Positions 30,253 through 62,855 of a DNA stretch of 64,000 bases are shown piece after piece. Below the pieces are notes generated by a model that ran no database searches, was not told the DNA's origin, and saw nothing but the letters and a program-made list of their open reading frames with translations. The position numbers and the translations under genes are program-made. The stretch lies in IMG/VR virus record IMGVR_UViG_3300030103_002259, positions 19,392 to 83,391 of that record. The stretch is one strand, 5' to 3'. The DNA is from a virus. Position 1 is the first letter of the stretch. Each line of letters begins with the position of its first letter.

Positions 30253-30923
30253 TATCTAAGTGCGTTTTGACCATCATCTAGGTTATCTTGTGGAACCTGC
30301 ATGGTTGTTGTAAATTCTTTGACTACCATTTGTTCAATCTCTGAAAATAAGTATTCAGGAAAAGGTAAAGGTTGATCTTGTCTTACCTTACACTTTAAAT
30401 CTTCATCACATTGAAATGGGGATATATCATCATCAAATACAGCCTCTACTCTAATAGCATCCCAATCAACATTAGGTAGATATAGATAACCATCTAAGTA
30501 CCAGAAGTAAGGCCTTTTGTTATATTTAAATGTTGTTGATTTAGCAATTGATGTCCAAGTACCTGGATCCGTTCTATATACTTCTATAGAGCTATCAATA
30601 GAAGATACTGTACGTATAATTGGACCAAATAAACCATCAAAAATATCTGGTAATTTTTCTTTAGTTCTTTTAAAATAACATCCAGAATATACACCCATGC
30701 ACCCAGCCTCTACCTTATCTACATCAATAAGTTCCATCATTGGTAGTACAGTAAATATAGAACTTACTCTCATAAGCCTATATTGATTATCTTCTCTTTT
30801 TAAAAGAGTTTTACCGTACTTAATTATTGAATAATATAAAGTTCTATCAGTTAGAAAAGGATCCTCCTTAACTGCTTTTAGTGTATTTCTTACTCTTGAT
30901 ATTGATTCTCCTATTGTTGTCAT
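30252..30923 (-). CDS. Tail ring protein
   Basis: MTTIGE..., YFWYLDGYLYLPN, C-terminal P-x-D-N-x-D-D. Translationally coupled to both neighbours. Confidence 0.6.
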   Translation of the reverse strand: MTTIGESISRVRNTLKAVKEDPFLTDRTLYYSIIKYGKTLLKREDNQYRLMRVSSIFTVLPMMELIDVDKVEAGCMGVYSGCYFKRTKEKLPDIFDGLFGPIIRTVSSIDSSIEVYRTDPGTWTSIAKSTTFKYNKRPYFWYLDGYLYLPNVDWDAIRVEAVFDDDISPFQCDEDLKCKVRQDQPLPFPEYLFSEIEQMVVKEFTTTMQVPQDNLDDGQNALR

Positions 30924-31501
30924 ATGTTAAATTCATTATAATTTTTTAAATCATCTTGAGTCTTTTTTAAACGTACTTCTTTATACCTCGTTTTTGCATA
31001 TGACAATTTTAATTTCTTCAAAGGATCAACTACCAAATACTTATTCCAATTTTCAGGATAAGTTTTAGATACATTTCTTTTAAACTTCCTACATGCAACA
31101 AATCCCCAAAATTCTCTGTTTCTAAATTTATGTTTTGGAGCATGGTTAGAATAAAATATTTTAGCTAGCTTACCGTCAGTTTCCCAATTCTTATTGGTGA
31201 CTTGTACTCCATGTTCACGGGATTTACCAAAATCAATATTATCTTTTTTACTTGTTTGGCAAGTTCCTATAAACAACCATCCTAACTGTTGTGGTAACTC
31301 TATACCATCTCTATGATCTATTACTTTATCACTAATCATTTCATTAAATGACTTAATAATAGTTCTTAACTTACTATCGTCTAAGTTTTTATACTTAGGA
31401 TGTTTAATTTTAAATTTTTCAAAGAACTCTTTATTTAAAACACTATAAACTTTAGGTCTAAATCTTGGAGCTTTTACGTCTGGTCTGTTAAATTCCTTCA
31501 T
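30920..31501 (-). CDS. IHF/HU-like DNA-binding protein of the crAss structural block
   Basis: Basic protein with helical N-terminus then GIELPQQLGWLFI, and an F-V-A-C-R-K-F-K-R segment. Position next to ring genes matches crAss-like synteny. Confidence 0.55.
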   Translation of the reverse strand: MKEFNRPDVKAPRFRPKVYSVLNKEFFEKFKIKHPKYKNLDDSKLRTIIKSFNEMISDKVIDHRDGIELPQQLGWLFIGTCQTSKKDNIDFGKSREHGVQVTNKNWETDGKLAKIFYSNHAPKHKFRNREFWGFVACRKFKRNVSKTYPENWNKYLVVDPLKKLKLSYAKTRYKEVRLKKTQDDLKNYNEFNI

Positions 31502-31503
31502 AA

Positions 31504-31516
31504 TAATATAGTAAAA
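31504..31516 (-). promoter_or_regulatory. Putative late promoter motif TTTTACTATATTA
   Basis: Motif copy 3 nt upstream of the 31501 start. Confidence 0.55.
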
Positions 31517-31544
31517 ATTATTGGTTTTAACAAATGTAACTATA

Positions 31545-31575
31545 AAAACGAAACCCCCACAAGTGTGAGGGTTTT
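31545..31575 (-). terminator. Intrinsic terminator
   Basis: AAACCCTCAC-ACTT-GTGGGGGTTT stem with one G-U pair, followed by CGTTTTT. Confidence 0.7.
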
Positions 31576-31613
31576 GCCATTGTTAGCCACAGAAACCAAC
31601 AAACTGCGACAAT
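31545..31613 (-). ncRNA. Candidate 3'-UTR small RNA (bulged hairpin with UUUGUUGGUUU loop, plus terminator)
   Basis: ATTGT-CGCAG [TTTGTTGGTTT] CTGTG-(GCTA)-ACAAT stem that needs a G-U pair, so it folds best on the minus strand. Confidence 0.4.
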
Positions 31614-31616
31614 ATT

Positions 31617-32072
31617 TTAACCTAATACAATTGTTCTTACTGTACCTGTAAATGAACCAGAACTTAATGTATAATTACCTAATGAAGTACATATTACTTC
31701 AAACTCTTTAGTTACATCAGTATTAGTTGCAGTATCAATAATTAATACTTGTACATATTGCTGTTGTAATGTATGAGTACAAGCTACAGTACTAGTTGGA
31801 GGACCTGCTGTAATTGCTTGAGCAGTTACAGAAGTATCATCTCTTCCTGTAGTACTAGTACATATATAAGATACAAGTTTAGTAATTACTGAATCTAAAT
31901 AATCATTACGTGAAATAACAGTGTCTGCCCCACAGACAATATCAGCACCAGTGTAAACAATACACTGTGCATTAAATACCTCAGCACATGCTGGAGGACA
32001 CGGTGGTACAACGGTATAAGCACCTGGTGTACATCCGCATTGGGTAGTTGAGTTACAATTTGAATTAGCCAT
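31617..32072 (-). CDS. Cys-rich small structural protein, paralogous to the N-terminus of 32096..33985
   Basis: NAQCIVYTGADIVC resembles SSNCVIWQGPDIEC in the upstream gene. Confidence 0.55.
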   Translation of the reverse strand: MANSNCNSTTQCGCTPGAYTVVPPCPPACAEVFNAQCIVYTGADIVCGADTVISRNDYLDSVITKLVSYICTSTTGRDDTSVTAQAITAGPPTSTVACTHTLQQQYVQVLIIDTATNTDVTKEFEVICTSLGNYTLSSGSFTGTVRTIVLG

Positions 32073-32095
32073 TTTTATTTTTATTTTTTAATTTT

Positions 32096-33985
32096 TTAAT
32101 CTCCTATTTTTTGTATAAAGAATTCAAAGTAATCACTAGTAGCTAAGTAACTACTTAAATACTCCCATCTTGGATTAGGTTGACTGGGAGATGAAGGATC
32201 TTCATCATTAATAAACATTCCTAATTTAACTTCTAAAACATCACCATCTTTTAATACAACCCCTAATGCTGTTCCCGATAATGTACATTTTGAAATGGAA
32301 TTATTTGGAGCAAATGAATCATTTGCATATAATTCACAAGATCCTGGTGCAGCTACATTCTGTATAGCTGATATTACAGTAATTCTAGGATTCGCTTTAG
32401 TTAAAGAACTCACTACAACTCTTGCTATATTATTAGAACCCTGAAAAACAGTAGCTCCATTGCTTAAGTCATGTGAGCTAAAAGTTCCTGTATAACTAAT
32501 CATCTCAGCTGAAACTATCACACCAGCAGTAGCTGTTATATCAATAAACATAGTACCATTAGGAAAATTGACCTGTACAAGTCCATCTACATAAGTAGAA
32601 ACACTTGGGGTACCTCCAACTAGTACATTAACACCAGCTGGGGTGTCATTAGATGATAAGTTATCACCACCGTACCAACCTTTACCTGTTCCAAAAAATG
32701 TACCAGAAGTTGCAGGTTCAGGAGCCGCAGGAGAACCAGAAGAAGATGGTATATTACTTGTGACAGGAGCGCTTAAAACAATATTATAACATAGGTTATA
32801 TACACCGCCCATTCCTGCTGGTATTATAAAATTTCCACCAGTTATTATACCACCTGAAAATGTATCATATATATCACTGCCTGCAACACCTGGAAATTTA
32901 AAAGGACCAGGTACACCTTGGCAAAGACTATTAACTGAACCAGAATTAATATACCCATCTTTTATTAAATATAAACCACTAGTAGAGTTAATATTACTAG
33001 CGCCTCCTCCTAGAGTATTAGAACCTGTATTTCTAATTAAAGCTCTAGGTTGATTTATATTTGCAGTAAAGTTATAATTAGGTAAGCCTGTATTTTCAGT
33101 AAATGATATTGTATCACTATCTGTAAATGTTACAGTAGTAATATTTCTAAGATCACAAACTGCTATCCATAAATTCTGTATAGTTTGAGCTAATGTATTG
33201 GGAGCCGATATCCAACCAGTTGGTCCTGGATATGCACTAGACATTGTACCAACAGCTGCGTCATTACCATCTACAATAGAAGCTGAAGCAGCAGTTATAC
33301 AAGATGGATTAAAAACACTTAATAAATCAGATGCGGTTCCAGAAGAACCTAGTATGACATCAATTGTTGCACAATAACCTATTGTAGCATCATTCACTAA
33401 ATTATCTAATACAACATCAATTGGTGCAGTAGGAGAACCTATAATGGTCTCAAAACAACCTGTTGGTATTGGAGGAATAGTAAATGAAGGAGGTGTTGCA
33501 TTTTCTAATGCAGTAACTCTAATATCAATATTAGTTATTTGATCTTGTAAACTAAGAATTTCAGTAACTAAAGAACATACTTTATTTGCAATTGCTTGTA
33601 CATAATCTACAAGCTGCATATTAGTTGTAGTTCCTTCAACAAAACAATCAGCTACTGATACAACACAATCAGGACATCCTGAATCTGTTGTAGGAGTAGA
33701 TGCAGGCACATCTTCTAATTCACATATTCTAGAAATTAATAATTGAATAAGTGCTTCAAAATTTTCTGGAGGACATGCAGCTGAGATACCTAAACAAGTT
33801 AAATCATAACTAGATACATTTGTTTGTTTCATCAATGTACATAACTCAACAGCTAATGCATAAACTACATCAGAAACAGTATCTCCTTTACAAAGCGTAA
33901 TACATTCAATATCAGGTCCTTGCCAAATAACACAGTTACTTGATATAGGAGAACAAGGTTTATTATCTAAATTTAACGGTTTCAT
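32096..33985 (-). CDS. Putative tail fibre/appendage protein (Cys-rich N-terminus, coiled coil, beta-rich C-terminus)
   Basis: CVIWQGPDI.C N-terminus, heptad segment ILSLQDQITNIDIRVTALE, and a Gly/Ser/Thr-rich C-terminal region. Confidence 0.5.
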   Translation of the reverse strand: MKPLNLDNKPCSPISSNCVIWQGPDIECITLCKGDTVSDVVYALAVELCTLMKQTNVSSYDLTCLGISAACPPENFEALIQLLISRICELEDVPASTPTTDSGCPDCVVSVADCFVEGTTTNMQLVDYVQAIANKVCSLVTEILSLQDQITNIDIRVTALENATPPSFTIPPIPTGCFETIIGSPTAPIDVVLDNLVNDATIGYCATIDVILGSSGTASDLLSVFNPSCITAASASIVDGNDAAVGTMSSAYPGPTGWISAPNTLAQTIQNLWIAVCDLRNITTVTFTDSDTISFTENTGLPNYNFTANINQPRALIRNTGSNTLGGGASNINSTSGLYLIKDGYINSGSVNSLCQGVPGPFKFPGVAGSDIYDTFSGGIITGGNFIIPAGMGGVYNLCYNIVLSAPVTSNIPSSSGSPAAPEPATSGTFFGTGKGWYGGDNLSSNDTPAGVNVLVGGTPSVSTYVDGLVQVNFPNGTMFIDITATAGVIVSAEMISYTGTFSSHDLSNGATVFQGSNNIARVVVSSLTKANPRITVISAIQNVAAPGSCELYANDSFAPNNSISKCTLSGTALGVVLKDGDVLEVKLGMFINDEDPSSPSQPNPRWEYLSSYLATSDYFEFFIQKIGD

Positions 33986-34000
33986 ATTTATGTCTAATTA

Positions 34001-34013
34001 TAATATACAAATT
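34001..34013 (-). promoter_or_regulatory. Putative late promoter motif AATTTGTATATTA
   Basis: Motif copy upstream of the 33985 start. Confidence 0.55.
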
Positions 34014-36678: not shown

Positions 36679-36816
36679 TTATCTTTTACTTTTTAATTTT
36701 GCTTCATATGAGCTTGCACATGTACTGCATACTTGTTTACCATCTGAAGCTGTTCTTTTTTGACATCCACATGATAATCTTTTTCCGCAGTTCATACATC
36801 TTACTCCTGCTGCCAT
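36679..36816 (-). CDS. 45-aa Cys-rich zinc-finger-like protein (below the ORF-track cutoff)
   Basis: Translates as MAAGVRCMNCGKRLSCGCQKRTASDGKQVCSTCASSYEAKLKSKR*. It fills the gap exactly, its stop abuts the next ATG, and AAACCAAC precedes its start. Confidence 0.75.
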   Translation of the reverse strand: MAAGVRCMNCGKRLSCGCQKRTASDGKQVCSTCASSYEAKLKSKR

Positions 36817-36837
36817 AACTTGTTGGTTTAGTTTAGT

Positions 36838-37449: not shown

Positions 37450-38934
37450 TTACTGTTGATCTTCTGCAGCTGGTGGAATTTCTTCAGCTGGTGGAATAGG
37501 GGCAACAGCTGCTGCTACCACAACAACACTTGGGTCATCACATGCAACAATAGCTTCCTGAGTATAATCAATACAATCTTCATTACCAGCAGCAATCAAT
37601 GTATTTTGGACATCAGCTAATAATGCTTGTATATCAGCATTTAAACCAGCAGCTCCACCAGTTGGCGCAGCAATATCTAATAGATACTGATCGTTATCAA
37701 ATGTACCTGAAGGATTATTGAATCTTGGAATAGTATGTAAGATAAATGCTCTATCATATAATGCAGTTCTATCAACTTGTCCAGGACCAGTTCCTAACAT
37801 GTCATTACCTTGAGTAATCTCACGAATTCTTAAATCAGTTGCAAAAGGAATTTGTCTGTAAGATTCTGATAAGATAAAGTCTCTCAATACACTTTCACCA
37901 AGTCCTTGTGGTTTTTTACCTTCACACTCATTTACAATACAAATTCCAGTAAACTCACATGGATCACCATTTAAGTCAACTTCAGAAGCAAATAATCTTA
38001 GAGGCTCAGTTCCGTAGAAATCTGATGGTTGGAAAGTACAATCTCCAAATCTAGTTTCTTCATAAGCACCTACTAACGTTAGTCCAGCACACTCATCAGT
38101 GTAAGCAGCAGGAGTATAAGCATCAGCAGTAGTTGCAATAACTGTAGCTGGACCAACTAAACCTAAGAAGGCGTTAGTTGCAGCAACAGCAGAAAGAAGT
38201 ACAGCAGGAGCAGTTCCAGCAGGATATACTAGAGTTGTTCCATTTCCTACAGCACCGCCAGAACCAGCAGCAGTTACAGTAACTACAGGAATAACAAATG
38301 GTTCTGCATTAGTACGTCCATTAGGTCCAGAACCTGTAAGAATAACACTCTCTTGAATTCCTCTTTGCCATTCAAGCATTACAATAGCTGGGTTAACAGC
38401 TACAGGAGCAATTGAGTCATCCTCACAACATCCTGTATAAGCAGTAACTTCTTGATATGCTTGACGATTTAACATTCTCAATGCAGGGGATCCTTTTACA
38501 TCTACTCTTAAGTGATAGTTTTCACCACATAAGAAAGTTGGACAGCAGTTTGGATCTCCAGCAGTAAATGGTGTAGTACCAATATGTAAAATAGACTGTT
38601 GAGCAGGATTTGCTCTTTGAGTCCATATTTTACTGATATACTTAGGATTAATTCCTTTTGATTTAATTGATTCTTGGTAACCACCGTGGAAAGGTCCAAT
38701 TCTGTCACTTCCATAAGGAGCACCAGATGCAACAACAAATTGACATGTAGTTGCTTCATCACCAGCACCAGCTGCACCAACATTAAGTGGTGTCCACTGT
38801 CTTGCATCATACAAAGATAATTGTCCTGAAGTTAGTTCACCACTAGTAGCAGTAGTAGCTGGAGGTGCTGCTACAGGAGCAATATACTCAGACATAATGA
38901 ATGTCTTTCTAAAAGCATTGTTAAAATAAGCCAT
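37450..38934 (-). CDS. Putative auxiliary capsid (decoration) protein
   Basis: 494 aa, Ala/Gly/Pro-rich, with its own promoter motif and terminator, consistent with high expression. Call rests on crAss-like synteny. Confidence 0.55.
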   Translation of the reverse strand: MAYFNNAFRKTFIMSEYIAPVAAPPATTATSGELTSGQLSLYDARQWTPLNVGAAGAGDEATTCQFVVASGAPYGSDRIGPFHGGYQESIKSKGINPKYISKIWTQRANPAQQSILHIGTTPFTAGDPNCCPTFLCGENYHLRVDVKGSPALRMLNRQAYQEVTAYTGCCEDDSIAPVAVNPAIVMLEWQRGIQESVILTGSGPNGRTNAEPFVIPVVTVTAAGSGGAVGNGTTLVYPAGTAPAVLLSAVAATNAFLGLVGPATVIATTADAYTPAAYTDECAGLTLVGAYEETRFGDCTFQPSDFYGTEPLRLFASEVDLNGDPCEFTGICIVNECEGKKPQGLGESVLRDFILSESYRQIPFATDLRIREITQGNDMLGTGPGQVDRTALYDRAFILHTIPRFNNPSGTFDNDQYLLDIAAPTGGAAGLNADIQALLADVQNTLIAAGNEDCIDYTQEAIVACDDPSVVVVAAAVAPIPPAEEIPPAAEDQQ

Positions 38935-44052: not shown

Positions 44053-45069
44053 TTAACTATTCCAATATGCTTCTGAAGTTTTAATTAAACCTTTTAAAAT
44101 ATCTTCATTTAAAGGATCCTTTAAAAACTCAAGAACATCAGATACATTTCTACCTAACATAACATTTTGCTTTGCATGATAAATATACCCATCTGCTTTT
44201 GTGATAATCTCTTTATAAAAACTAGAGTCTTTAATAATAGATCTAATTTTTAAAGTTTCCATATCACATTTTACTGCATCTAAGAAAGTTTTTACTGCTC
44301 TCTCCATGTTGCTGTCAGATCCTTCTGCATGAATATATTCATCCATATTTTCATACAGGATATCTAATGGTGTTGATTTTTTGTATTGCGTACTATTAAC
44401 ATCTACAACTTTTGCTACATAGAAAAGTTTAGTGCTATTTTTATCAAATAATTTTTGCAGTTCTGATAATGCCTTATTTCTAAGTTTTTTGTATTCAGTT
44501 CTACTAGATACTGTTTCTTCTTCTTTATCTAAGAAAAATTTAGGCGGCTTTGGTTTTGTTTTTGCATCTTCATAACTTTTTGCAATTAAAGAAAACCCCC
44601 CTGCTTCTATAGCATATAGTTTAATTCTATCATATGGATCTGACATATTTAAAAAAGTTGGTTCATTACCTACTTTGATTTCTATCTTATTCCAAAATTC
44701 TGAATTATCAGGTTTAAGAAGTTTTACTTTATTCCAAAAGTCTTTATCTTCTGGATCAATAATATTAGAAGCTAATTCTGCTTCTAGATCAGCTACAGCT
44801 TTTCTTATCTGTCTTGTTTTAGCTTCTCTAGCTTCTTTAGAAAGTTTTTTAACTTCTGGAGCAAATTCATTAAGTCCTGTCAAATATCTATTGATACCAT
44901 TAATTTCTAGACAAGCCAATTGTTCTTGGTGTTTTACACCATCAAATAAACTTAATCCATAATTTTCTAGACCCATGTTATCTACTCTTGCATTAAAATA
45001 AGGCTTAATAGCAACTTTTGATTTAGTTCCTGATGCTACCTGTACCATTGTAAAATTATTATCTGCCAT
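44053..45069 (-). CDS. Conserved crAss-like protein downstream of MCP (gene-75-like)
   Basis: Directly follows MCP. RYLTGL..., FW, LNMSDPYD and LG...FLKDPLNEDI features. Confidence 0.55.
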   Translation of the reverse strand: MADNNFTMVQVASGTKSKVAIKPYFNARVDNMGLENYGLSLFDGVKHQEQLACLEINGINRYLTGLNEFAPEVKKLSKEAREAKTRQIRKAVADLEAELASNIIDPEDKDFWNKVKLLKPDNSEFWNKIEIKVGNEPTFLNMSDPYDRIKLYAIEAGGFSLIAKSYEDAKTKPKPPKFFLDKEEETVSSRTEYKKLRNKALSELQKLFDKNSTKLFYVAKVVDVNSTQYKKSTPLDILYENMDEYIHAEGSDSNMERAVKTFLDAVKCDMETLKIRSIIKDSSFYKEIITKADGYIYHAKQNVMLGRNVSDVLEFLKDPLNEDILKGLIKTSEAYWNS

Positions 45070-45107
45070 TGGTTTTTGTTTTTGTTGGTTATTATTTGTT
45101 GATTATT

Positions 45108-45160: not shown

Positions 45161-46774
45161 TTAGAATGATCCTCCAGTAACTGGGTTTCTCATAACAATC
45201 TTCAATACCTTAGTTGGGTCTTTTACCCATACAGCTGGCATTGTTTGAGACATCATAACTCTATACCCATTGAATTGTCCAGAAGACTGGAATCCTTGAG
45301 CACGACCCATATAGTCCATTGTACCATTTTGATACCACCACTTAAGTTGGTTATCCCACTCTAACTTCAACAAGAAGATGTTGTCATTAGTATTATCAGT
45401 GATGTCAAAGATAATGAATGAATAAGAAGATAATGGGAATCCATCAATGATTGGGTTCTCAATATCATTAGTATTTACATTATCAAATGCTGGGTTAAGT
45501 ACAAACTTAACATTAGCAAGGAAAGGAATTACATAGCTAGTGTAAGCAAAACCAAAGTTCAAGTCCATTCCTTGACCAGTGATTGCACCTATATCAGCAG
45601 CTTGAATTACAAGACCTGATGCTACAGCATCTCTCTTAATAGCTTCATTCACCATTCTCATTCCACCCATACCAGTTTGAACAATCAATTGTCTACCTGG
45701 ATCTGGACCTTGGAATTCAACTTTACCATTAAAGAAGTTATAAATCTCAGAACGGAATAAGTCAAGGTTAAAGTTATTTTTGTTATATACTCTTTTGAAA
45801 GAGTTATCAAGCTGTTGCCAAAGACCTACAGATAATCTTAAATCATCTGGTCCGTCTTGCCTAACTCTACCACCTTGTCCCCACATTAGGTAACACTCAA
45901 TATCAGAAGCAATCTTAGAAAGATGTGCAGCTTCCATTTGAGTAAGGAAAGTTCTAGAAAGATCACCATTATCAAATGCTCTCTTTACTTTATCTTTACC
46001 CATTGTTTTTACCATGTCATCTAAAGATGCTACAGCAGGATCCATATTTTTATCAAAAGTTCTCCAGATCTCAGTTACAGGAACTGTACCATCTGCATTC
46101 ATTCCACCTTTGATCATAAGATCAGCTCTAGAAGAAACTGAATAGTGAACATGAGCTTCTGCACCACCTACATAATTGTAGAATTCACGGAAACCTGTTT
46201 TAGTAGTGATGTCAGAGAATCTTTCACCATACTCACCTCTAGCAGAACCTTTTCTAAAGAATTTAGTTCCATTTGCTAAAAATGCTCTGTCAAATGAAGC
46301 AGCAGTATTATTGTTGACCATTTGTACAGTATAAATAAAACCATCTCCCATTGGAAGAATGTCTTCATCTGTAATGTAAAGTTCAGCACCATTGTATTTA
46401 TCATAAGTGATAATATCACCGTGACCAAAGTCTTTACAGCTCATCTTAATGCGGAAAGTTGTACCATCTACACCAAGAACACCTTCTCCTTCAATATCCT
46501 CAATAATATAAGGAAGATCATTAGATACAGGAGTTTGCCACTTATACTCACCACGAGCATTATCTACCATGATTACATTTTTACCACCAAAGCTAGACAT
46601 TTGATAAAGGGGCATCTCTACCTTCTGAGACATTGCCCATAGGTCCACTGGACCTAAGTCCATCGGTTCTGCATCCTTCAACATGTTAACCAAGTGGTAA
46701 GAGTCTACGTGTGAACTTGCGTTGTACGCTGTATCCCGTAGAAAGATACCATTGTTTAAAACTGGAGTTGCCAT
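45161..46774 (-). CDS. Major capsid protein (crAss-like)
   Basis: 537 aa in the order portal, scaffold-like, MCP. Features EYKWQ, LMWG...G.WQQ, TGMGGM, FGF.YTSY and LNPAFDN. Biased codon usage and a strong terminator follow. Confidence 0.85.
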   Translation of the reverse strand: MATPVLNNGIFLRDTAYNASSHVDSYHLVNMLKDAEPMDLGPVDLWAMSQKVEMPLYQMSSFGGKNVIMVDNARGEYKWQTPVSNDLPYIIEDIEGEGVLGVDGTTFRIKMSCKDFGHGDIITYDKYNGAELYITDEDILPMGDGFIYTVQMVNNNTAASFDRAFLANGTKFFRKGSARGEYGERFSDITTKTGFREFYNYVGGAEAHVHYSVSSRADLMIKGGMNADGTVPVTEIWRTFDKNMDPAVASLDDMVKTMGKDKVKRAFDNGDLSRTFLTQMEAAHLSKIASDIECYLMWGQGGRVRQDGPDDLRLSVGLWQQLDNSFKRVYNKNNFNLDLFRSEIYNFFNGKVEFQGPDPGRQLIVQTGMGGMRMVNEAIKRDAVASGLVIQAADIGAITGQGMDLNFGFAYTSYVIPFLANVKFVLNPAFDNVNTNDIENPIIDGFPLSSYSFIIFDITDNTNDNIFLLKLEWDNQLKWWYQNGTMDYMGRAQGFQSSGQFNGYRVMMSQTMPAVWVKDPTKVLKIVMRNPVTGGSF

Positions 46775-46804: not shown

Positions 46805-48100
46805 TTAAAAACCTCTGCTAAACATATTTTGTTTTTTCCGAGGAACTGTCTGTTTTTTTCTTGTTGTTCTTCTTGAACTTGTTGAAACATCTTTTTTAAC
46901 TGTTGCTGAAGAACTTAATTTTCTTGCTTGTTCAGCTGTTTTTAATTGTCTTGCAGTTTTTCTTACAGCTTCATCAGCTCCAACAGATCTTACTTTAGTT
47001 TTGTAACCTTTTGGATCTGCTAATAACCATAATGCCTCTGCAATAAGATCATGTCTAGGTTCTACAAACTGGTACTTTTCTAATAAATGCCCTAATAAAT
47101 TTGTAGGTTTCCCAGATATTGAAGGGTAATTAGGTTGAACTAAACCAGAAAATAAAAGACTTTGTGTCTTTTTATCTAATTTTAAATCATCTAATTGGCC
47201 TTGAGCAAGTGTATTATATACATTATCTTGATATGCTTTTGCTTGTTCAGCTTGTTGAGCTTTTTTCTGTTCTTGCTCTGCTAGTTGTTGTGCAACAATT
47301 GTTTCTTGCATTTTATCTAACTTTGGCTTAAACTGTTTAGCTTTTTTACCAAGCCTGTCAAGATCTGCCCAATCTTGTATTTCAGCTTCTATTTCTTCAG
47401 CTGTACCAAATCTTGTAGCATGAAGATATTGTCTTGCAATTTCAGCTTGATGATTTTCATCTTCAGGATTTAGATCCATAGTATCTTCTACTTGGGCTAA
47501 AGTTCTAAATAAACTTTTTAAATCCTGACCTCCATCTGCAACATACTTTGCTGCAACTTGAAGTTCTTCAGGTAAAGATTGAAAAAATTCTCTAGGAGTA
47601 TCTTGTCTAATCTTTTCTTCCCTTTGCTGAAAATTTGTTTCAAATAACTCTCTGAAATCTTTAGCTGTATAATCTTCTAAATCCTTATCATCATCAAATG
47701 GTAATAAAGATCCTTCTTCTATCATTTTATTAGCTAATTCAACAAGACCGCTCTTATCTACTCTAGGTCTTCCTGATGCAGTTTCTCCATTTTCTTCTTG
47801 TTCTGAGATCATCTCATCCAATTCAGAAATAGTTTCTTCTGCAGTTTCAGTAGGTGTTACCTCTACTTCTTCTGAAGTTGTTTCAACAGGTTTGTCAATG
47901 AACGTTGTGTCTACTTCCTTTTCCTTTGAAAAGACTGTATTTTTTTCTTCTAAATCTTCTTCAGGTAGCATGACACTTTCTGCTCCTGGTTGTCCAAAGA
48001 TTTCATCAATATTTATATCTACTTCCTCTACCGTTGTAGATTCTTGTATTTTAGACTCAGTATTTTGTACTTCGTCTGAAGTTGATTTTTCTTCACTCAT
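46805..48100 (-). CDS. Acidic scaffold-like protein upstream of MCP (gene-77-like)
   Basis: Very acidic N-terminus, coiled coil and basic C-terminus, located between portal and MCP. Confidence 0.65.
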   Translation of the reverse strand: MSEEKSTSDEVQNTESKIQESTTVEEVDINIDEIFGQPGAESVMLPEEDLEEKNTVFSKEKEVDTTFIDKPVETTSEEVEVTPTETAEETISELDEMISEQEENGETASGRPRVDKSGLVELANKMIEEGSLLPFDDDKDLEDYTAKDFRELFETNFQQREEKIRQDTPREFFQSLPEELQVAAKYVADGGQDLKSLFRTLAQVEDTMDLNPEDENHQAEIARQYLHATRFGTAEEIEAEIQDWADLDRLGKKAKQFKPKLDKMQETIVAQQLAEQEQKKAQQAEQAKAYQDNVYNTLAQGQLDDLKLDKKTQSLLFSGLVQPNYPSISGKPTNLLGHLLEKYQFVEPRHDLIAEALWLLADPKGYKTKVRSVGADEAVRKTARQLKTAEQARKLSSSATVKKDVSTSSRRTTRKKQTVPRKKQNMFSRGF

Positions 48101-48123
48101 TTTTGTTGGTTTTGTTTATATAA

Positions 48124-48136
48124 TAATATACTAAAA
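48124..48136 (-). promoter_or_regulatory. Putative late promoter motif TTTTAGTATATTA for scaffold/MCP
   Basis: Motif copy upstream of the 48100 start. Confidence 0.6.
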
Positions 48137-48195: not shown

Positions 48196-50946
48196 CTAAG
48201 TAGCATCATTTTGATTTCTAACATCATATTTATTTTTATTTTCTCTAGCTATTTGTAGTTGTTTATCTGCTATTTCTTTTTGAGCTTGTATTTTTTCACG
48301 CTCAATTTGATTTTTAGCAGATTCATTATTCATTCTATTTACTTCCTTTTCTCTTTGCAAGTCTGTTTGTGTTTGATATTGTTCAGTATCTCTAATATCT
48401 TTCATAGCATCTTGGAAGTCAGATTGCATATTTTTATCAATATCTGCCATTGATCCATAACCCGCAGCTCTAATTTCAGCAACAAGAATATCTTTTCTTC
48501 TTTCTTTCTCAGCTTCTTGAGCTTCTGCATCCAATCTCATTTGCTCTTGTTCTTTCTGAGCCTGTAATTGTTGTTCTTGCATTTGCTGTTGTTGCTGTTG
48601 CTCTTGTTGTTTTTGTTGTTGTTGTTTTTGTTCAGATGTTTTTAAAACTGTATTTAGTCCAGCAATAGAATCTGATTGAATAATTTTACCTAAGTCATAT
48701 ATACTAGCACCTGTAGTATTATTCTGCATAGCCATTTGTTTTAATTGCTCTAATACAGCTCTATGGTTTGCAGTTGTAGTACAAAAGATATTGAGATCTC
48801 TCATCAAAAGATCTGTACCATTAATTTGAAAATTAACTTTTTCATCCAGTGATGTTATATAAGTCAATCTTGCAGATGGTTTAGTACTATGATAATATTG
48901 AGCTAGATCTGTTCTCATTTCATGTACTCTAGGCATTAGATAATCTGAGTGTTGTACAAAGTACATTTCTGTTTGGGCATATGATGCATTGGCCGCTTGT
49001 TCTACACCAGTAGCTGTCATTTGTGATAATTGCTGCCCCATTCTTTGTGGATTAACACCAATTACCTCATATGCTTGTTGTTTAAAATGATTAGCTAATT
49101 GAACTCTAGACATTAATCTATTAGTCTGATCTAAATCAAGTTTCTGAAAATGCTGGAAGTTTAATGCATTTTCTGTATTTGTAATAGTAGTATCTAGTGG
49201 TAGCATTTGGAAATCTTTCATAGCTACATAAGCTTTAGATAAATTACCTTTACCCCAGTCCTCACCTAATGAATGTTTAGGTAATGCATTTTGATCTAAT
49301 AAAATTACAGTACCTAATTCATCTACTAAAATATCAGCTATTTGATTATTTACAATATTAAAACCTATTTGATATGGTTTCATTAAATCAATAAGAGCTG
49401 TTGATTTAGTATTTCTATCAGAAAATACAGCACCCTCTACAGGTAGTTTACAACCATATAAACTATTCTCACCTTTAAACTGAAATTTAAGAGGATTTAA
49501 ACGATTAGTATTTATACCTAAATACATAGGTGCAAGTCCTCCTGGATTATTCATACCCCAATAGCTAGGAATATTTGGTCCTATTTTGATACCACCCCAA
49601 ACCTCATTGATCCAGATCCAATCAATATGTTCTCCAAATAATAAATTTTCTTTATTCTTATTTTTAAATAACCTAGTATCATAAATAGGTTTATCTGTAA
49701 TTTTGTAATCTTCTGTAACAATCTCGTTTAATATTTGACCATCTTCAGTTACTTTAACTAGATGACCTAGTTTTCTTTGTGACTTCCAGTAAGATTGTGT
49801 AACCCGTAATAAGTTTGCATCAGGTGAATCTAACATACTTTCACTTTCACCTATAATATCTGCAACTACATCACCTCCGTCATATAATCCTGAATCACCC
49901 ATAAATGATGTATACTGACGCATGGCTAAAGATGGTCTATCTGTATTCCATTGATGTGATTTAGTAGCATCATAAAAAGAACCATCATTTTGCTGACCAG
50001 TAATAGTATAACCAGCAGATCTTACAGGATAAATTGATTCTAAAGATTCTAGCTGCTCTTCAGTCATTAAAAATCCAAATTTATCTATAACATCAGCTGC
50101 TGTATACATATCTGTTTTACCAACCCACTGACCATCTGAGATATATCTAGTATCAGGAGATTTATGGTAAAAAGTTAATGCAGGATTCCAGAGCTCTACA
50201 TCATAATCATCTTCCATCATATGAAAATGCCAGAACTCTCTATCTGTAATTAACATATCACGAAAGCCTCTTTCTTCAAGCTCATCCATTCTAAATCTTT
50301 CAATATCTACTTTATGTTGATGTTCAGCCCACTGTTCCACCATAGATCTATAGTCTTTCTTAAAGAACTGTTCTATTTCAGGTAAGCTTTTGATATTATC
50401 TGAAGACATTTGTTGTTGTGCTTCTTGAGAGTTAGGATCTAATCCTTGAGCAACCATGGCGGCCATTATCTTAACTTGTGCATCTGCCATTAATGTTTTT
50501 TCTACCTCAGCTCTTTTCTGTTCAAGCATTTCATTATATGAAAATTCATCAACAGCTCTATAAGTTAATTTAGTAGATCTTTTTGCAAACTCTGCAACAA
50601 GTACATTTACAACATTAGGAATAATTGGATAAAATCTTAGCTCAAGAGCATTTGAAGTATCATCTAAAAGATTTTCTACAATATCTTTCATTTCATTATC
50701 ATCTTCGATAATGTAATCTGTTCTATCAATAATACCTTTTGCTAGCTTATAATTTTTCATTAGCCTTCTTGAGTTTCGTCTTAATTGTTTAAGACCATTC
50801 CACTCAAGCCAGTCTAAATTCCAAGCAGCCCATTCTTGTGTTTTATCTTTTTTAGGTAGAAACTGAAGAGGTTGAGTTAAAGTACCCATCCTTTCTTGTT
50901 TAGCTTTAGCGCCTTTTTTTAATTGAAGTGCATTAAATACCTGCAT
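48196..50946 (-). CDS. Portal protein
   Basis: 916 aa after the terminase. YPIIPNVVNVL, WINEVWGG.KIG, L.DLMKPYQ..NI and GVNPQRMGQ motifs, with a Gln-rich C-terminal coiled coil. Confidence 0.85.
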   Translation of the reverse strand: MQVFNALQLKKGAKAKQERMGTLTQPLQFLPKKDKTQEWAAWNLDWLEWNGLKQLRRNSRRLMKNYKLAKGIIDRTDYIIEDDNEMKDIVENLLDDTSNALELRFYPIIPNVVNVLVAEFAKRSTKLTYRAVDEFSYNEMLEQKRAEVEKTLMADAQVKIMAAMVAQGLDPNSQEAQQQMSSDNIKSLPEIEQFFKKDYRSMVEQWAEHQHKVDIERFRMDELEERGFRDMLITDREFWHFHMMEDDYDVELWNPALTFYHKSPDTRYISDGQWVGKTDMYTAADVIDKFGFLMTEEQLESLESIYPVRSAGYTITGQQNDGSFYDATKSHQWNTDRPSLAMRQYTSFMGDSGLYDGGDVVADIIGESESMLDSPDANLLRVTQSYWKSQRKLGHLVKVTEDGQILNEIVTEDYKITDKPIYDTRLFKNKNKENLLFGEHIDWIWINEVWGGIKIGPNIPSYWGMNNPGGLAPMYLGINTNRLNPLKFQFKGENSLYGCKLPVEGAVFSDRNTKSTALIDLMKPYQIGFNIVNNQIADILVDELGTVILLDQNALPKHSLGEDWGKGNLSKAYVAMKDFQMLPLDTTITNTENALNFQHFQKLDLDQTNRLMSRVQLANHFKQQAYEVIGVNPQRMGQQLSQMTATGVEQAANASYAQTEMYFVQHSDYLMPRVHEMRTDLAQYYHSTKPSARLTYITSLDEKVNFQINGTDLLMRDLNIFCTTTANHRAVLEQLKQMAMQNNTTGASIYDLGKIIQSDSIAGLNTVLKTSEQKQQQQKQQEQQQQQQMQEQQLQAQKEQEQMRLDAEAQEAEKERRKDILVAEIRAAGYGSMADIDKNMQSDFQDAMKDIRDTEQYQTQTDLQREKEVNRMNNESAKNQIEREKIQAQKEIADKQLQIARENKNKYDVRNQNDAT

Positions 50947-50951
50947 AATTA

Positions 50952-53165
50952 CTATTTAATATTTTTGAAAGCAGACCTTTTTACAGATGTACCATTAATT
51001 CTCTTTCTTTTCCTACCCATATGTCTAAACGGACTACTCTTTAATTTATACAAATTTTCTGACTTTTGCAACTTTTTAGCATCATCATCCATGATAGTTC
51101 TCTTTCTATAACCTCTATTAGATTCTTGAATTCTCATAAATGCTACAAGCGCTGCAAAAGACACGAGCCTATCCACATTGACCCCATCTGCATATTCTCT
51201 CATTTCTTTTATAAGCATGGGATCAGGAATTCTTTCTATCCCGTATGTTTTTCTAACTATAGTACCATCCTCTTTTGTTTCTACATCTATCTCTTCTTTT
51301 GTAAACTCAATAGTATACGACAACAAATGAGCCTTAAATAATGTACCAGTATTCTTCCAACCATATTCTTGGAATACATTAGCATTAGCACCAAGATCTT
51401 TTAAAAACATAATTTGACTTTTAGGTACAAGATACTTTTGCTTCTTTCTGTGAATCATATAATTTATAAATAATGATATGTTATTTTCTATAACTGTCCA
51501 CGCATTATACCACTCAATTATATGTTCTAATCTTTCATGTGTTCTATTTATATCATCAAACCTTCCGCACCATGCAGCAACTATTTTAGCTGGTTCTATA
51601 TAAGTTTGCGTTTCTATACCAGTAACTTTTGTTACCTCTACAGAATTTTTCATTACATAAATAGAACATAATGATTCTGAGGTTGTGGTTTTACCTTCTG
51701 AAACAGGGTCAATAGATGCATAGTAAGTCCCAAAAGAAGGATTGTCTACAGGTCTTTCCCAAACTACCAAAACACCTTCTTTATTTTCTGTTTTCTTTTT
51801 TATTGGAAAATCTTTTATAGGTTGTTTATTAGACCTTTTAGATTGCAGCTTACCATTTTCATCTTCATACAAATCTATAAACTCATAACCATATGTTTTA
51901 TCTTCTATTCTTTGCTGTTGTGCAGCTAGCAGATGTGTAGGAAATACAGAAATAGATCTATGGTCAAATGCTTCTTTTATATTTCTTGGATGCTGAGATA
52001 TTCTCAATTGATAATCTTCTGGAGCCAACTCTTTTTTCCAATCTATAAATTGTTGTTCTAAAGCTTTAAGCGCTTTTTCTACTTTAGAGTTGCCATACTG
52101 GTCTATATGTGGAGGCATAGACCATTGTTCAGGAATAAATAAACCTGACAAACCAGTAGTACCTTTATCATCTATTAAATCAGTTTCTACAGCATAAATA
52201 TCTTTAGATGTAGGATTCTGAATCATATCTTTAAGCGGGTTACATTGTGACAAATCACCCACGGATCCTGCTGCTATAAATAATCCTGTAGTAGTAAGAC
52301 CAGATCTCATTGCTGGTCTCATGTACTCATATGTCTTATCCATTTTAGGTGCAATACCTGCTTCCTCATGAAAGAAGTATTTAACAGGACCCCCTACACC
52401 ATTTGTTGGATCTTTTTCAAATGACATTGCTTGTATAGTTCCTTTAAGTCCTACTTCAGTTTTTCTATTACCCTTTCTAACCTCAATCTTTTGTTGCCAC
52501 ATCATTATTTTGTTTGGGTTCATAGGTCTATACCATGCAGTATGTTCATTTAGAAATGCTGCATATTCATCTAAAAACTTCCAAGATCCTTTCTCATTGA
52601 TATAATCTTTAAGACTAGCGCCTATTTTTAATGTCACCCCAGCTTCAAACCATTGCTGGTTAATAAGCTTTGCCATATGATAGTAAGATGATGCTATCTG
52701 ACGTTTCTTTAGTATAGCAACATGTTTATAGTTTAACTCTGCTAGCATCTCATACAATGCCATATGATACTGAGCATCCCTAATATCAGCAAACCCAAAT
52801 TGTTGTATTTCTTTATTAAAGATTGGTAGAAAGTTTAACCACATATAATAATCACGGGTTATATACCAGGTTCCTTTTTTAGATTTATATATTACACCCT
52901 TTCTACATTTCTTTTTTTCACCATCCCAGTATTTAATAAAATCTTTTGATTTAAATGCTGATGTGCAATAAACACCTGTATCTTTAAACTTAGTTGCTTG
53001 TGAATTAAATTGTAAACTAGTTTTATCAAAATTATACTGACCAGGTTCTTTAAATAAAACTCTTATATAATCTGCAAAGTCTTCTCTGCTATCAAAGTCT
53101 GTAGTAGTCCATACACCATTATCCCAAGTTGGGATATCCTCATATATTTCTGTATTATTGATCAT
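50952..53165 (-). CDS. terL: Terminase large subunit
   Basis: Variant Walker A (ILKKRQIASSY), Walker B (YFFHEEAG), RNase H-like SIDPV...ENN and NVDRLVSF nuclease motifs. Confidence 0.9.
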   Translation of the reverse strand: MINNTEIYEDIPTWDNGVWTTTDFDSREDFADYIRVLFKEPGQYNFDKTSLQFNSQATKFKDTGVYCTSAFKSKDFIKYWDGEKKKCRKGVIYKSKKGTWYITRDYYMWLNFLPIFNKEIQQFGFADIRDAQYHMALYEMLAELNYKHVAILKKRQIASSYYHMAKLINQQWFEAGVTLKIGASLKDYINEKGSWKFLDEYAAFLNEHTAWYRPMNPNKIMMWQQKIEVRKGNRKTEVGLKGTIQAMSFEKDPTNGVGGPVKYFFHEEAGIAPKMDKTYEYMRPAMRSGLTTTGLFIAAGSVGDLSQCNPLKDMIQNPTSKDIYAVETDLIDDKGTTGLSGLFIPEQWSMPPHIDQYGNSKVEKALKALEQQFIDWKKELAPEDYQLRISQHPRNIKEAFDHRSISVFPTHLLAAQQQRIEDKTYGYEFIDLYEDENGKLQSKRSNKQPIKDFPIKKKTENKEGVLVVWERPVDNPSFGTYYASIDPVSEGKTTTSESLCSIYVMKNSVEVTKVTGIETQTYIEPAKIVAAWCGRFDDINRTHERLEHIIEWYNAWTVIENNISLFINYMIHRKKQKYLVPKSQIMFLKDLGANANVFQEYGWKNTGTLFKAHLLSYTIEFTKEEIDVETKEDGTIVRKTYGIERIPDPMLIKEMREYADGVNVDRLVSFAALVAFMRIQESNRGYRKRTIMDDDAKKLQKSENLYKLKSSPFRHMGRKRKRINGTSVKRSAFKNIK

Positions 53166-55506: not shown

Positions 55507-55797
55507 TTAGGTTCTTTTAAGTTTACTTCTTTTTAGTGGTTTTTTATCTTGAGTTGGTTTAGATTTTGGCTTATCTACATCCTCATCTGAACCTTCTGGT
55601 GGTTGCGTACTAGCCATTAGCATTTGCCATTGATATGCAAAGTTTGCTCTTTTAAATCTAGCCTCTTCCACATCAGTTAGAAGTTGTTCATATTTAAGTT
55701 GTGATTCTAAATAAGGAATAGAAGAATCATAAAATTCTTTCATTTCTTCTTTTCTTTGATCTAGCTCTTCAGCTGATAAATTTTCTGGATTTTCCAT
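55507..55797 (-). CDS. Hypothetical coiled-coil protein
   Basis: ORF with an upstream promoter motif and an AAACCA-ATG start context. Confidence 0.55.
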   Translation of the reverse strand: MENPENLSAEELDQRKEEMKEFYDSSIPYLESQLKYEQLLTDVEEARFKRANFAYQWQMLMASTQPPEGSDEDVDKPKSKPTQDKKPLKRSKLKRT

Positions 55798-55818
55798 TGG
55801 TTTAAATTTTTATTTAAT

Positions 55819-55832
55819 CAAATATACAAATA
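55819..55832 (-). promoter_or_regulatory. Promoter motif TTTGTATATTTG (matches Bacteroidota -7 TAnnTTTG)
   Basis: Upstream of the 55797 start, immediately after a terminator. Confidence 0.55.
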
Positions 55833-62812: not shown

Positions 62813-62842
62813 TTGTTTCTTTTTTTAATAAATATACAGTTA

Positions 62843-62855
62843 TAATATAGTAAAA
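62843..62855 (-). promoter_or_regulatory. Putative late promoter motif TTTTACTATATTA
   Basis: Upstream of the 62812 start, directly after a terminator. Confidence 0.55.

Follow-up and report, generated by a model that had tools for sequence, protein, structure and literature searches.

Hairpin and complementary boxes in a phage head module

The DNA analyzed here is a 64,000-nucleotide (nt) stretch, called the window below, which makes up most of a virus record consisting of one contig of 83,391 bases (IMG/VR record IMGVR_UViG_3300030103_002259). It contains approximately 59 genes, all located on the minus strand, and the features described below lie on that strand. Its subject is a hairpin in the 3′ untranslated region (UTR) of a gene for a 151-amino-acid Cys-rich protein (31617-32072), together with short boxes complementary to the hairpin loop that precede start codons in the head module. 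The genes carrying these boxes encode a scaffold-like protein of 431 amino acids (46805-48100), a protein of 338 amino acids encoded next after the capsid gene (44053-45069), and a Cys-rich protein of 45 amino acids (36679-36816). The label "scaffold-like" reflects only the position of that gene between the portal gene (48196-50946) and the major head protein gene, referred to as the capsid gene (45161-46774), and the acidic, charged composition of its product.

An earlier note on this DNA, made by a model from the letters alone, had described a bulged hairpin with an 11-nt loop between the stop of the 151-amino-acid gene and a terminator. Reading of the minus strand placed the loop, UUUGUUGGUUU, exactly there (31593-31603), flanked by a 5′ arm GUCGCAG (31604-31610) and a 3′ arm CUGUGGC (31586-31592). 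The stem (31610-31586) comprises 7 bp, including two G·U pairs, and none of these is bulged; the hairpin of the note thus stood and its bulge did not. After the 3′ arm, the strand reads UAACAAUGGCAAAA, in which a UAACAA spacer (31580-31585) leads to the GC-rich terminator stem. The intrinsic terminator (31541-31579) consists of this stem, a lower stem that pairs an A-tract with a U-tract, and a U-rich tail; its core (31574-31551) has 10 pairs followed by the U-tract and starts 11 nt past the hairpin. Of 200 shuffles, 199 folded less stably than this single sequence (z = −2.75). The hairpin therefore sits between the stop codon TAA (31619-31617) and a terminator that it shares with the messenger RNA (mRNA), a layout identical in relatives and in agreement with the 3′-UTR origin that the note had supposed. 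No promoter-like box was observed directly upstream of the hairpin. Downstream of the terminator, promoter-like boxes TACATTTG and then ACTATATTATT (31502-31538), in a region kept in an alignment of eight sequences (A1), are predicted to act as the promoter of a 193-amino-acid gene (30920-31501, start at 31501).

We then compared the loop with the leaders of the other genes. The strongest match, AAACCAACAAA (48102-48112), is complementary to the loop at 11 of 11 positions, lies 1 nt before the AUG of the scaffold-like gene, and has a calculated duplex energy of −12.4 kcal/mol. The 9-nt core of the loop, UUGUUGGUU, is the proposed seed, and its complement AACCAACAA stands 12 nt before the AUG of the 338-amino-acid gene (45082-45090), downstream of the capsid-gene terminator, and 3 nt before the AUG of the 45-amino-acid gene (36820-36828). 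When the whole loop was considered, both of the latter were matches at 10 of 11 positions (45081-45091 and 36819-36829). All three sites had been named in the earlier note and were recovered by sequence search. It had also listed 7-nt matches overlapping the AUG at 55797 (55797-55803, a 96-amino-acid gene beginning MENPEN at 55507-55797) and at 45069; these are real but weak, with −9.1 kcal/mol at 55797. The hairpin and its complementary boxes, as observations, are thus confirmed.

The 9-nt core and the loop were further examined against composition-matched controls. The 9-mer AACCAACAA occurs three times in the sense orientation in the 83,391 bases, and all three copies are located 2-12 nt upstream of a start codon, in line with the enrichment at starts that the note had proposed as a check; the sole antisense copy in the genome is the hairpin loop. 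Of the 84 9-mers that six A and three C can form, no other has three leader copies, and the next in rank are this box in a shifted register. Similarly, the loop ranked first among 165 permutations of the same composition when the energies of the three best duplexes over 58 start regions were summed (−12.4, −11.8, and −11.7 kcal/mol). Duplex energies reaching −10 kcal/mol were obtained for 3 of the 58 start regions, compared with 8 of 1,516 tiles of the coding strand.

Conservation of the hairpin in relatives

A search with the 193-amino-acid protein yielded 15 related IMG/VR loci, of which seven (64-74% protein identity) have the entire cassette of hairpin, terminator, and promoter-like boxes directly upstream. 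Mean column identity of the cassette in these seven loci was 82%, despite differing upstream genes. Using a pattern composed of the loop core, the 3′ arm, and AACAA, we detected the hairpin in at least 119 IMG/VR stretches, and the matches gave 84 distinct 78-nt versions (alignment A2). As the pattern fixed the loop and AACAA, the seeming invariance of AACAA in this alignment follows from the search itself. All seven stem pairs were standard in 84 of 84 versions. Exchanges in the stem passed through wobble intermediates: one pair was UA in 59 and UG in 25 versions, pair 10-31 was UG in 51, CG in 20, and UA in 13, and two others were AU or GU (52 and 32; 66 and 18). Across the relatives, the stem occurs in at least nine different forms, every one of them pairable. 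In the terminator helices, four pairs showed changes on both sides, with a lower-stem pair being CG in 64 and GC in 13 versions, and several unrelated terminator stems were found among the relatives. RNAalifold predicted the same hairpin and an extended terminator.

A covariance model built from these sequences detected copies scoring 30-36 bits in six more distant loci, in which the 193-amino-acid protein is 49-55% identical. Their stems are wholly different (GUGGUAG/CUAUCAC, GUGAUGG/CUAUUAC, and GUAGUAG/CUAUUAC), whereas the loop is the same. Hairpins found in whole records added the stems GAUAG/CUAUC, GUC-CACG/CGUGAC, AUCUCU/AGAGGU, and GUCUCAG/CUGUGAC, each followed by its own GC-rich terminator. 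When stretches were collected by one terminator variant alone, independently of the loop, UUGUUGGUU was kept in 39 of 40. Loop length in relatives ranged from 10 to 13 nt, and the loops are U/G-rich. Of 17 diverse hairpins, 16 folded with five or more pairs and left the core fully open, compared with 5.7% of flank shuffles, and the core was open in the minimum-energy fold of 80 of the 84 relatives, the sequence of the window being among the four exceptions. The frequent G·U pairs would be A·C mismatches on the other strand, indicating that the structure was selected on the coding-strand RNA. The conservation on which the earlier note had made its idea depend is therefore found: the stem covaries, and the loop stays almost constant, also where it was no part of the search.

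No Rfam family, those of phage antisense RNAs such as C4 included, matched the element at its gathering score; the best hits, MicC (26.6 bits, threshold 90) and the rnk leader (24 bits, threshold 55), were both driven by the terminator. A conserved H-type pseudoknot between the loop and AACAA was considered and rejected; no such partner is present in the divergent hairpins of loci L008, L011, and L012, and the pairing was kept as a local masking fold in this genome.

Conservation of the leader box and its co-occurrence with the hairpin

Next, we analyzed the leaders of the putative target genes in relatives. The exact box was present in the last 45 nt before the scaffold-like start in 37 of 47 related loci (protein identity 42-100%), compared with none of the 47 reversed leaders, and most of the remaining 10 loci have one-position departures, AACCAACAC or AACCAACAG. 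The distance of the box before this gene from the AUG is variable, and so is its distance from the promoter-like box (TTTAGTATATTA type). Before the 338-amino-acid gene, the exact box was found in 50 of 80 loci (reversed leaders, 2 of 80), and 18 of these 50 carry two copies approximately 6 nt apart; here, the box comes after the capsid-gene terminator and not after a promoter-like box. A wobble-tolerant version of the pattern was too loose, matching 39 of 80 reversed leaders, and only exact counts were used.

Both elements occur together. In 10 of 10 whole records of increasing divergence, one copy of the 9-mer is antisense and lies in a hairpin loop before a terminator, and a box on the same strand closely precedes the start of the scaffold-like gene (404-438 amino acids) or of the 335-340-amino-acid gene; the reversed-pattern control gave 0-2 matches per strand per whole record. 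In four of the 10 records (G005, G007, G009, and G010), the box also precedes a small Cys-rich gene (44-69 amino acids), and in four of the 10 it forms codons 3-5 of a gene of approximately 70-96 amino acids beginning ATGGAAAACCAACAA. The homologue of the latter gene in the window (55507-55797) has lost the full box. More than 20 contig names were common to the hairpin lists and the leader lists when the tables were compared by eye. Wherever both were placed, the hairpin was located 12-19 kb downstream of the scaffold-like gene.

As for cultured phages, searches with the capsid protein by tblastn detected distant relatives only, with 28% identity at best. Cellulophaga phage phi17:2 and Leptolyngbya phage Lbo-JY46, which have the same order of portal, unnamed gene, and capsid gene, showed as many matches as the reversed control and leaders without the box, and thus have neither element; blastn of positions 30900-33000 against the phage collection gave no match. 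No laboratory phage with the element was therefore found by these searches.

The conservation data bear on whether the match between loop and box has any meaning at all. Low-complexity sequence might have produced it by coincidence, or it might be a neutral relic, such as an inverted leader copy without function, and the A-rich, low-complexity leaders and the marginal outcome of a one-mismatch test (see below) would be consistent with this. However, the composition-matched controls were passed, and loop and box stay the same between genomes with protein identities of 37-66%, although their flanks and the stem differ. Near-identical recombinant copies of one cassette are further made improbable by the variety of stems and terminators. 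We therefore regard chance or relic as very improbable.

A different explanation is that the motif acts as double-stranded DNA: a single regulator protein would recognize AACCAACAA/TTGTTGGTT whichever way it is turned, both in the terminator-promoter cassette and close to the starts of late genes. Such a site would read the same in both orientations, a promoter-like box follows the hairpin by approximately 55-60 nt, and several leader boxes come just after promoter-like boxes. Nevertheless, the stem that carries the motif in its loop has many G·U pairs and can form on the coding strand only, and boxes also occur after the capsid-gene terminator without a promoter-like box and within the first codons of a gene. 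The substitutions in the box point in the same direction. Among one-off box variants from 75 distinct leaders, internal C positions changed from C to U in 22 cases and from C to A in seven, in leaders that are 49% A and 31% T. A change from C to U keeps a G·U wobble with the loop G and would thus be tolerated in RNA pairing, whereas this bias would not matter for a DNA site; it lends a little support to the pairing proposed below. A DNA site is accordingly rated as quite improbable, though somewhat less so than chance.

We also considered that the hairpin is a protein-binding RNA element involved in antitermination, processing, or stability, and that the box is an unrelated translation enhancer whose complementarity to the loop is incidental. 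Protein-bound hairpins such as lambda boxB likewise combine a fixed loop with a covarying stem ahead of a terminator, and loop-target covariation is not clean in our data. In the lambda nut/boxB element, a 5-nt GNRA-like loop caps a short stem and is accompanied by a boxA and an N-type protein; the loop observed here differs in being 10-13 nt long and U/G-rich. A/C-rich unstructured leaders would be expected anyway in hosts poor in Shine-Dalgarno (SD) pairing, according to what is available to us of a study of such leaders (PMC6847099). Against this explanation, two conserved 9-nt elements would be exact reverse complements in approximately 1 of 84 cases by chance, both compositions taken as given. 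The two elements co-occur in 10 of 10 whole records and are both absent from two of two distant relatives. No candidate binding protein was identified, with no search for an N-like protein made. These results render a protein-binding hairpin with an incidental box unlikely.

Proposed pairing of the loop with the leader boxes

Of the earlier note's reading, the hairpin anatomy, its conservation, and the complementarity to leaders are supported, while a trans-acting small RNA that alters translation is a prediction. Taken together, we assign a probability of about 0.58 to loop-to-leader RNA pairing, in which the seed in the 3′-terminal hairpin would pair with the AACCAACAA leader boxes and thereby tune the translation of head genes. 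RNA-RNA pairing is the simplest link between the two elements because both are conserved amid changing flanks, they are exact reverse complements, they are always on the same strand, and the loop is single-stranded. In the mechanism that we propose, the last ~70 nt of the head-module mRNA (31610 to ~31541, minus strand) would comprise the hairpin and the terminator and would display an invariant U/G-rich seed in the loop. This seed would pair with the A/C-rich box at the scaffold-like, post-capsid, and small Cys-rich genes and, in relatives, also with the first codons of the ~70-96-amino-acid gene. Pairing would most likely block initiation, setting the amounts or the timing of head proteins, and an effect on mRNA stability is equally possible. 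We infer that the element acts in trans, either as a processed 3′ fragment or as the 3′ end of the mRNA, and that the outcome of pairing is repression. Pairing would be expected to hinder 30S binding because the host apparently lacks SD pairing and the box is inside the region that 30S must occupy. Under this proposal, the loop would be kept from drifting because several targets share one seed.

The features of translation initiation in this genome fit such a host. SD-like motifs were found before only 1 of 59 genes, compared with 8.3% of random positions, and the 20 nt before the starts are 51% A. In Bacteroidota, initiation depends on unstructured A-rich leaders, as described in the parts of two reports available to us (PMC6847099 and PMC7797042). 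The depletion of SD motifs and the A-rich leaders fit an SD-poor, Bacteroidota-like host, which is consistent with the earlier note's assumption of a host phylum that mostly lacks SD pairing. The hairpin pattern gave six chance matches in 185,579 species genomes, none with a stem or a terminator.

Several observations weigh against the pairing proposal. First, the minimum-energy fold in this genome pairs the loop with the downstream GGCUAACAA (−25.4 kcal/mol), and the hairpin with an open loop (−24.5 kcal/mol) lies 0.9 kcal/mol above it. The UAACAA spacer can thus pair with the loop here in an alternative fold that masks the seed, and because of this adjacent sequence the loop is unpaired in only ~25% of the ensemble. 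Second, when one mismatch was allowed on both strands, seven matches were obtained against 3.35 expected, and 2 of 100 shuffles reached seven, a marginal result; weak matches are inflated by the A/C-rich, low-complexity leaders. Third, box variants overall comprised 25 transitions and 20 transversions, a modest excess, with 10 of the transversions located where the box abuts the ATG. Fourth, the counts over relatives are phylogenetically non-independent. Fifth, none of the marine metatranscriptome contigs described below covered the hairpin informatively, and contigs cannot show the ends or levels of a small RNA.

A further point concerns covariation between the loop and the box. Among the 40 terminator-anchored sites, a single variant loop, UUUGUGAGUUU, was found, in a 30%-complete fragment (record G011, loci L330/L332) and with a weakened stem. 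A site in the same record, AACUCGCAA, could pair with the variant loop through eight Watson-Crick pairs and one G·U pair. It is located 2 nt before a start codon, after a terminator-like hairpin, and the gene is a homologue of the window's 180-amino-acid gene. However, the 180-amino-acid gene in the window has no box, and the Cys-gene leader of G011 keeps a canonical-type AACCAAUAA; the variant loop may therefore be a decaying copy with a chance match. A scan for the variant loop returned 10 stretches, nine of which were chance matches without a hairpin, and the covariance model applied to five further fragments returned one canonical loop and two weak, unconvincing matches. Clean covariation between loop and box was thus not obtained, because the loop is almost invariant.

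Pairing between the same two elements could alternatively take place within one long polycistronic head mRNA, for end protection or for coupling of termination to translation, with no free RNA acting in trans. The genes, the boxes, and the hairpin are all on one strand, the hairpin is downstream of the scaffold-like gene at the distance given above in every record in which both were placed, and no promoter-like box stands just upstream of the hairpin. On the other hand, at least one strong terminator (45143-45112, 14 pairs) intervenes between boxes and hairpin, and promoter-like boxes occur inside the block; few transcripts would thus carry both ends. Moreover, a single loop could not serve all of the several boxes of a genome within one molecule. 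Pairing confined to a single transcript appears unlikely.

A broader proposal, which we advance only tentatively and hold to be somewhat less likely than not, is a clade-wide post-transcriptional circuit. In this circuit, AACCAACAA would be the ribosome landing site of a head-gene regulon and would be antagonized by the invariant anti-box seed, such that finished late transcripts feed back on scaffold and accessory head proteins. If this proposal were true, phages of such hosts would have their first described RNA regulon, and it would represent RNA-only control of capsid-protein stoichiometry.

Comparison with known RNA regulators

Regulators that act by RNA base-pairing are well established in model bacteria and in a few model phages and, to our knowledge, are almost unknown in phages of Bacteroidota-like hosts. 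Small RNAs derived from 3′ UTRs, as far as described, mostly depend on Hfq or ProQ, and the small RNAs of Bacteroides base-pair at start regions in an SD-poor phylum without Hfq. In phages P1 and P7, the c4 antisense RNA is cut from an operon transcript, and its loops pair around the ribosome-binding region of genes of the same phage, thereby blocking translation. The element described here would resemble c4 in that a phage loop is predicted to pair at start regions of the same phage's genes. However, c4 belongs to a temperate phage, in which it precedes its target within one operon and acts on a single antirepressor operon, whereas this hairpin is far downstream, belongs to a head module, and has one loop for several candidate targets.

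Base-pairing small RNAs derived from 3′ UTRs in bacteria have been the subject of a review (PMC13501541) and include CisR (PMC13250501) and UhpU (PMC12704781); as far as the available parts of these sources describe them, they share several features with the element described here, namely the location between a stop codon and the transcript's own terminator, a short seed complementary to several start regions, and no evident promoter of their own. They are cellular, in contrast to this element of an uncultured phage of an SD-poor host, in which the seed is in a hairpin loop, the predicted targets are the phage's own head genes, and the identification is from sequence alone. Phage noncoding RNAs from 3′ UTRs that are abundant late in infection, ncRNA1 and ncRNA2, have been reported for PAK_P3 (10.1101/2023.10.13.562163). 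These were seen experimentally, and the part of that report available to us gives no target or seed (10.1101/2023.10.13.562163), whereas here targets are predicted from sequence. In Bacteroides, small RNAs with a loop seed are exemplified by GibS, as partly available to us (PMC7366714). RNAs of the GibS type are host-encoded, regulate metabolism, and are not located at a 3′ UTR and terminator, in contrast to the phage-borne element in such a position described here.

Literature searches on the 9-mer, on crAss-like and Cellulophaga promoters, on phage and UTR-derived small RNAs, and on the PAK_P3 noncoding RNAs found no description of this element. It would thus be a known kind of regulator, a 3′-UTR-derived seed RNA, in a clade and host type for which none has been described. 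At least 119 stretches of uncultured marine phages keep a 9-nt seed together with its predicted targets, outside any curated RNA family. If the pairing is true, it would offer a simple, testable case of a virus that sets head-protein amounts by RNA alone, and it would define a leader element probably driving translation in an SD-poor host. The combination of hairpin loop and box would also provide a compact signature for finding this phage clade in metagenomes. If the pairing is false, the hairpin would still be an unrecorded, strongly conserved structured RNA that needs explanation.

Promoter-like boxes, RNA contigs, and neighboring genes

A box of the form T(A/T)(G/C)TATAT(T/A) recurs 12-50 nt upstream of 11 gene starts, among 20 coding-strand matches. 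Examples are located at 48123-48133, 34000-34010, 15050-15060, 55819-55829, 62842-62852, and 31503-31513 (minus strand), and the box is conserved in relatives before the scaffold-like and 193-amino-acid genes. It is probably the −10-like part of phage middle or late promoters. The cassette also contains TAnnTTTG, which we take to be a −7-type box. A tripartite middle-promoter motif has been described for crAss-like phages, in the part of the report available to us (10.1101/2020.03.07.982082), and may bear on the promoter-like box observed here. In many relatives (L195-L274), the capsid-gene terminator is followed by one or two boxes and then by the next gene, with no promoter-like box between them; that gene therefore seems to be expressed by read-through, the box being the only upstream signal.

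Marine metatranscriptome contigs from three of four runs cover parts of the head genes, most deeply at 37450-38934 and in the capsid gene; these contigs show neither ends, strand, nor level. Their occurrence in three runs indicates that the phage or close relatives were present in marine RNA libraries. One contig ends at 48122, close to where the scaffold-like gene has its promoter-like box, contig ends not being RNA ends.

Ten proteins were searched against PHROGs. Four matched families, namely the major head protein, the portal, the large terminase (50952-53165), and a family of unknown function, and the other six (151, 629, 886, 431, 338, and 180 amino acids) had none. None of the eight proteins searched against Pfam matched a family, and the 151-amino-acid protein thus has neither a PHROGs nor a Pfam assignment. 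Giant open reading frames of 1,100-3,249 amino acids are located downstream of the head genes. The 45-amino-acid gene belongs to a family of conserved head-module proteins of 44-69 amino acids with two CxxC pairs, which resemble a zinc ribbon by eye and have no Pfam family.

In most relatives (loci L016-L029), only the first ~72 residues of the 151-amino-acid Cys-rich protein are conserved. Its C-terminal part, or elsewhere the entire upstream gene, is replaced in relatives, while the hairpin-terminator-promoter cassette that follows remains ~82% identical. The cassette may thus mark a boundary for the exchange of gene modules.

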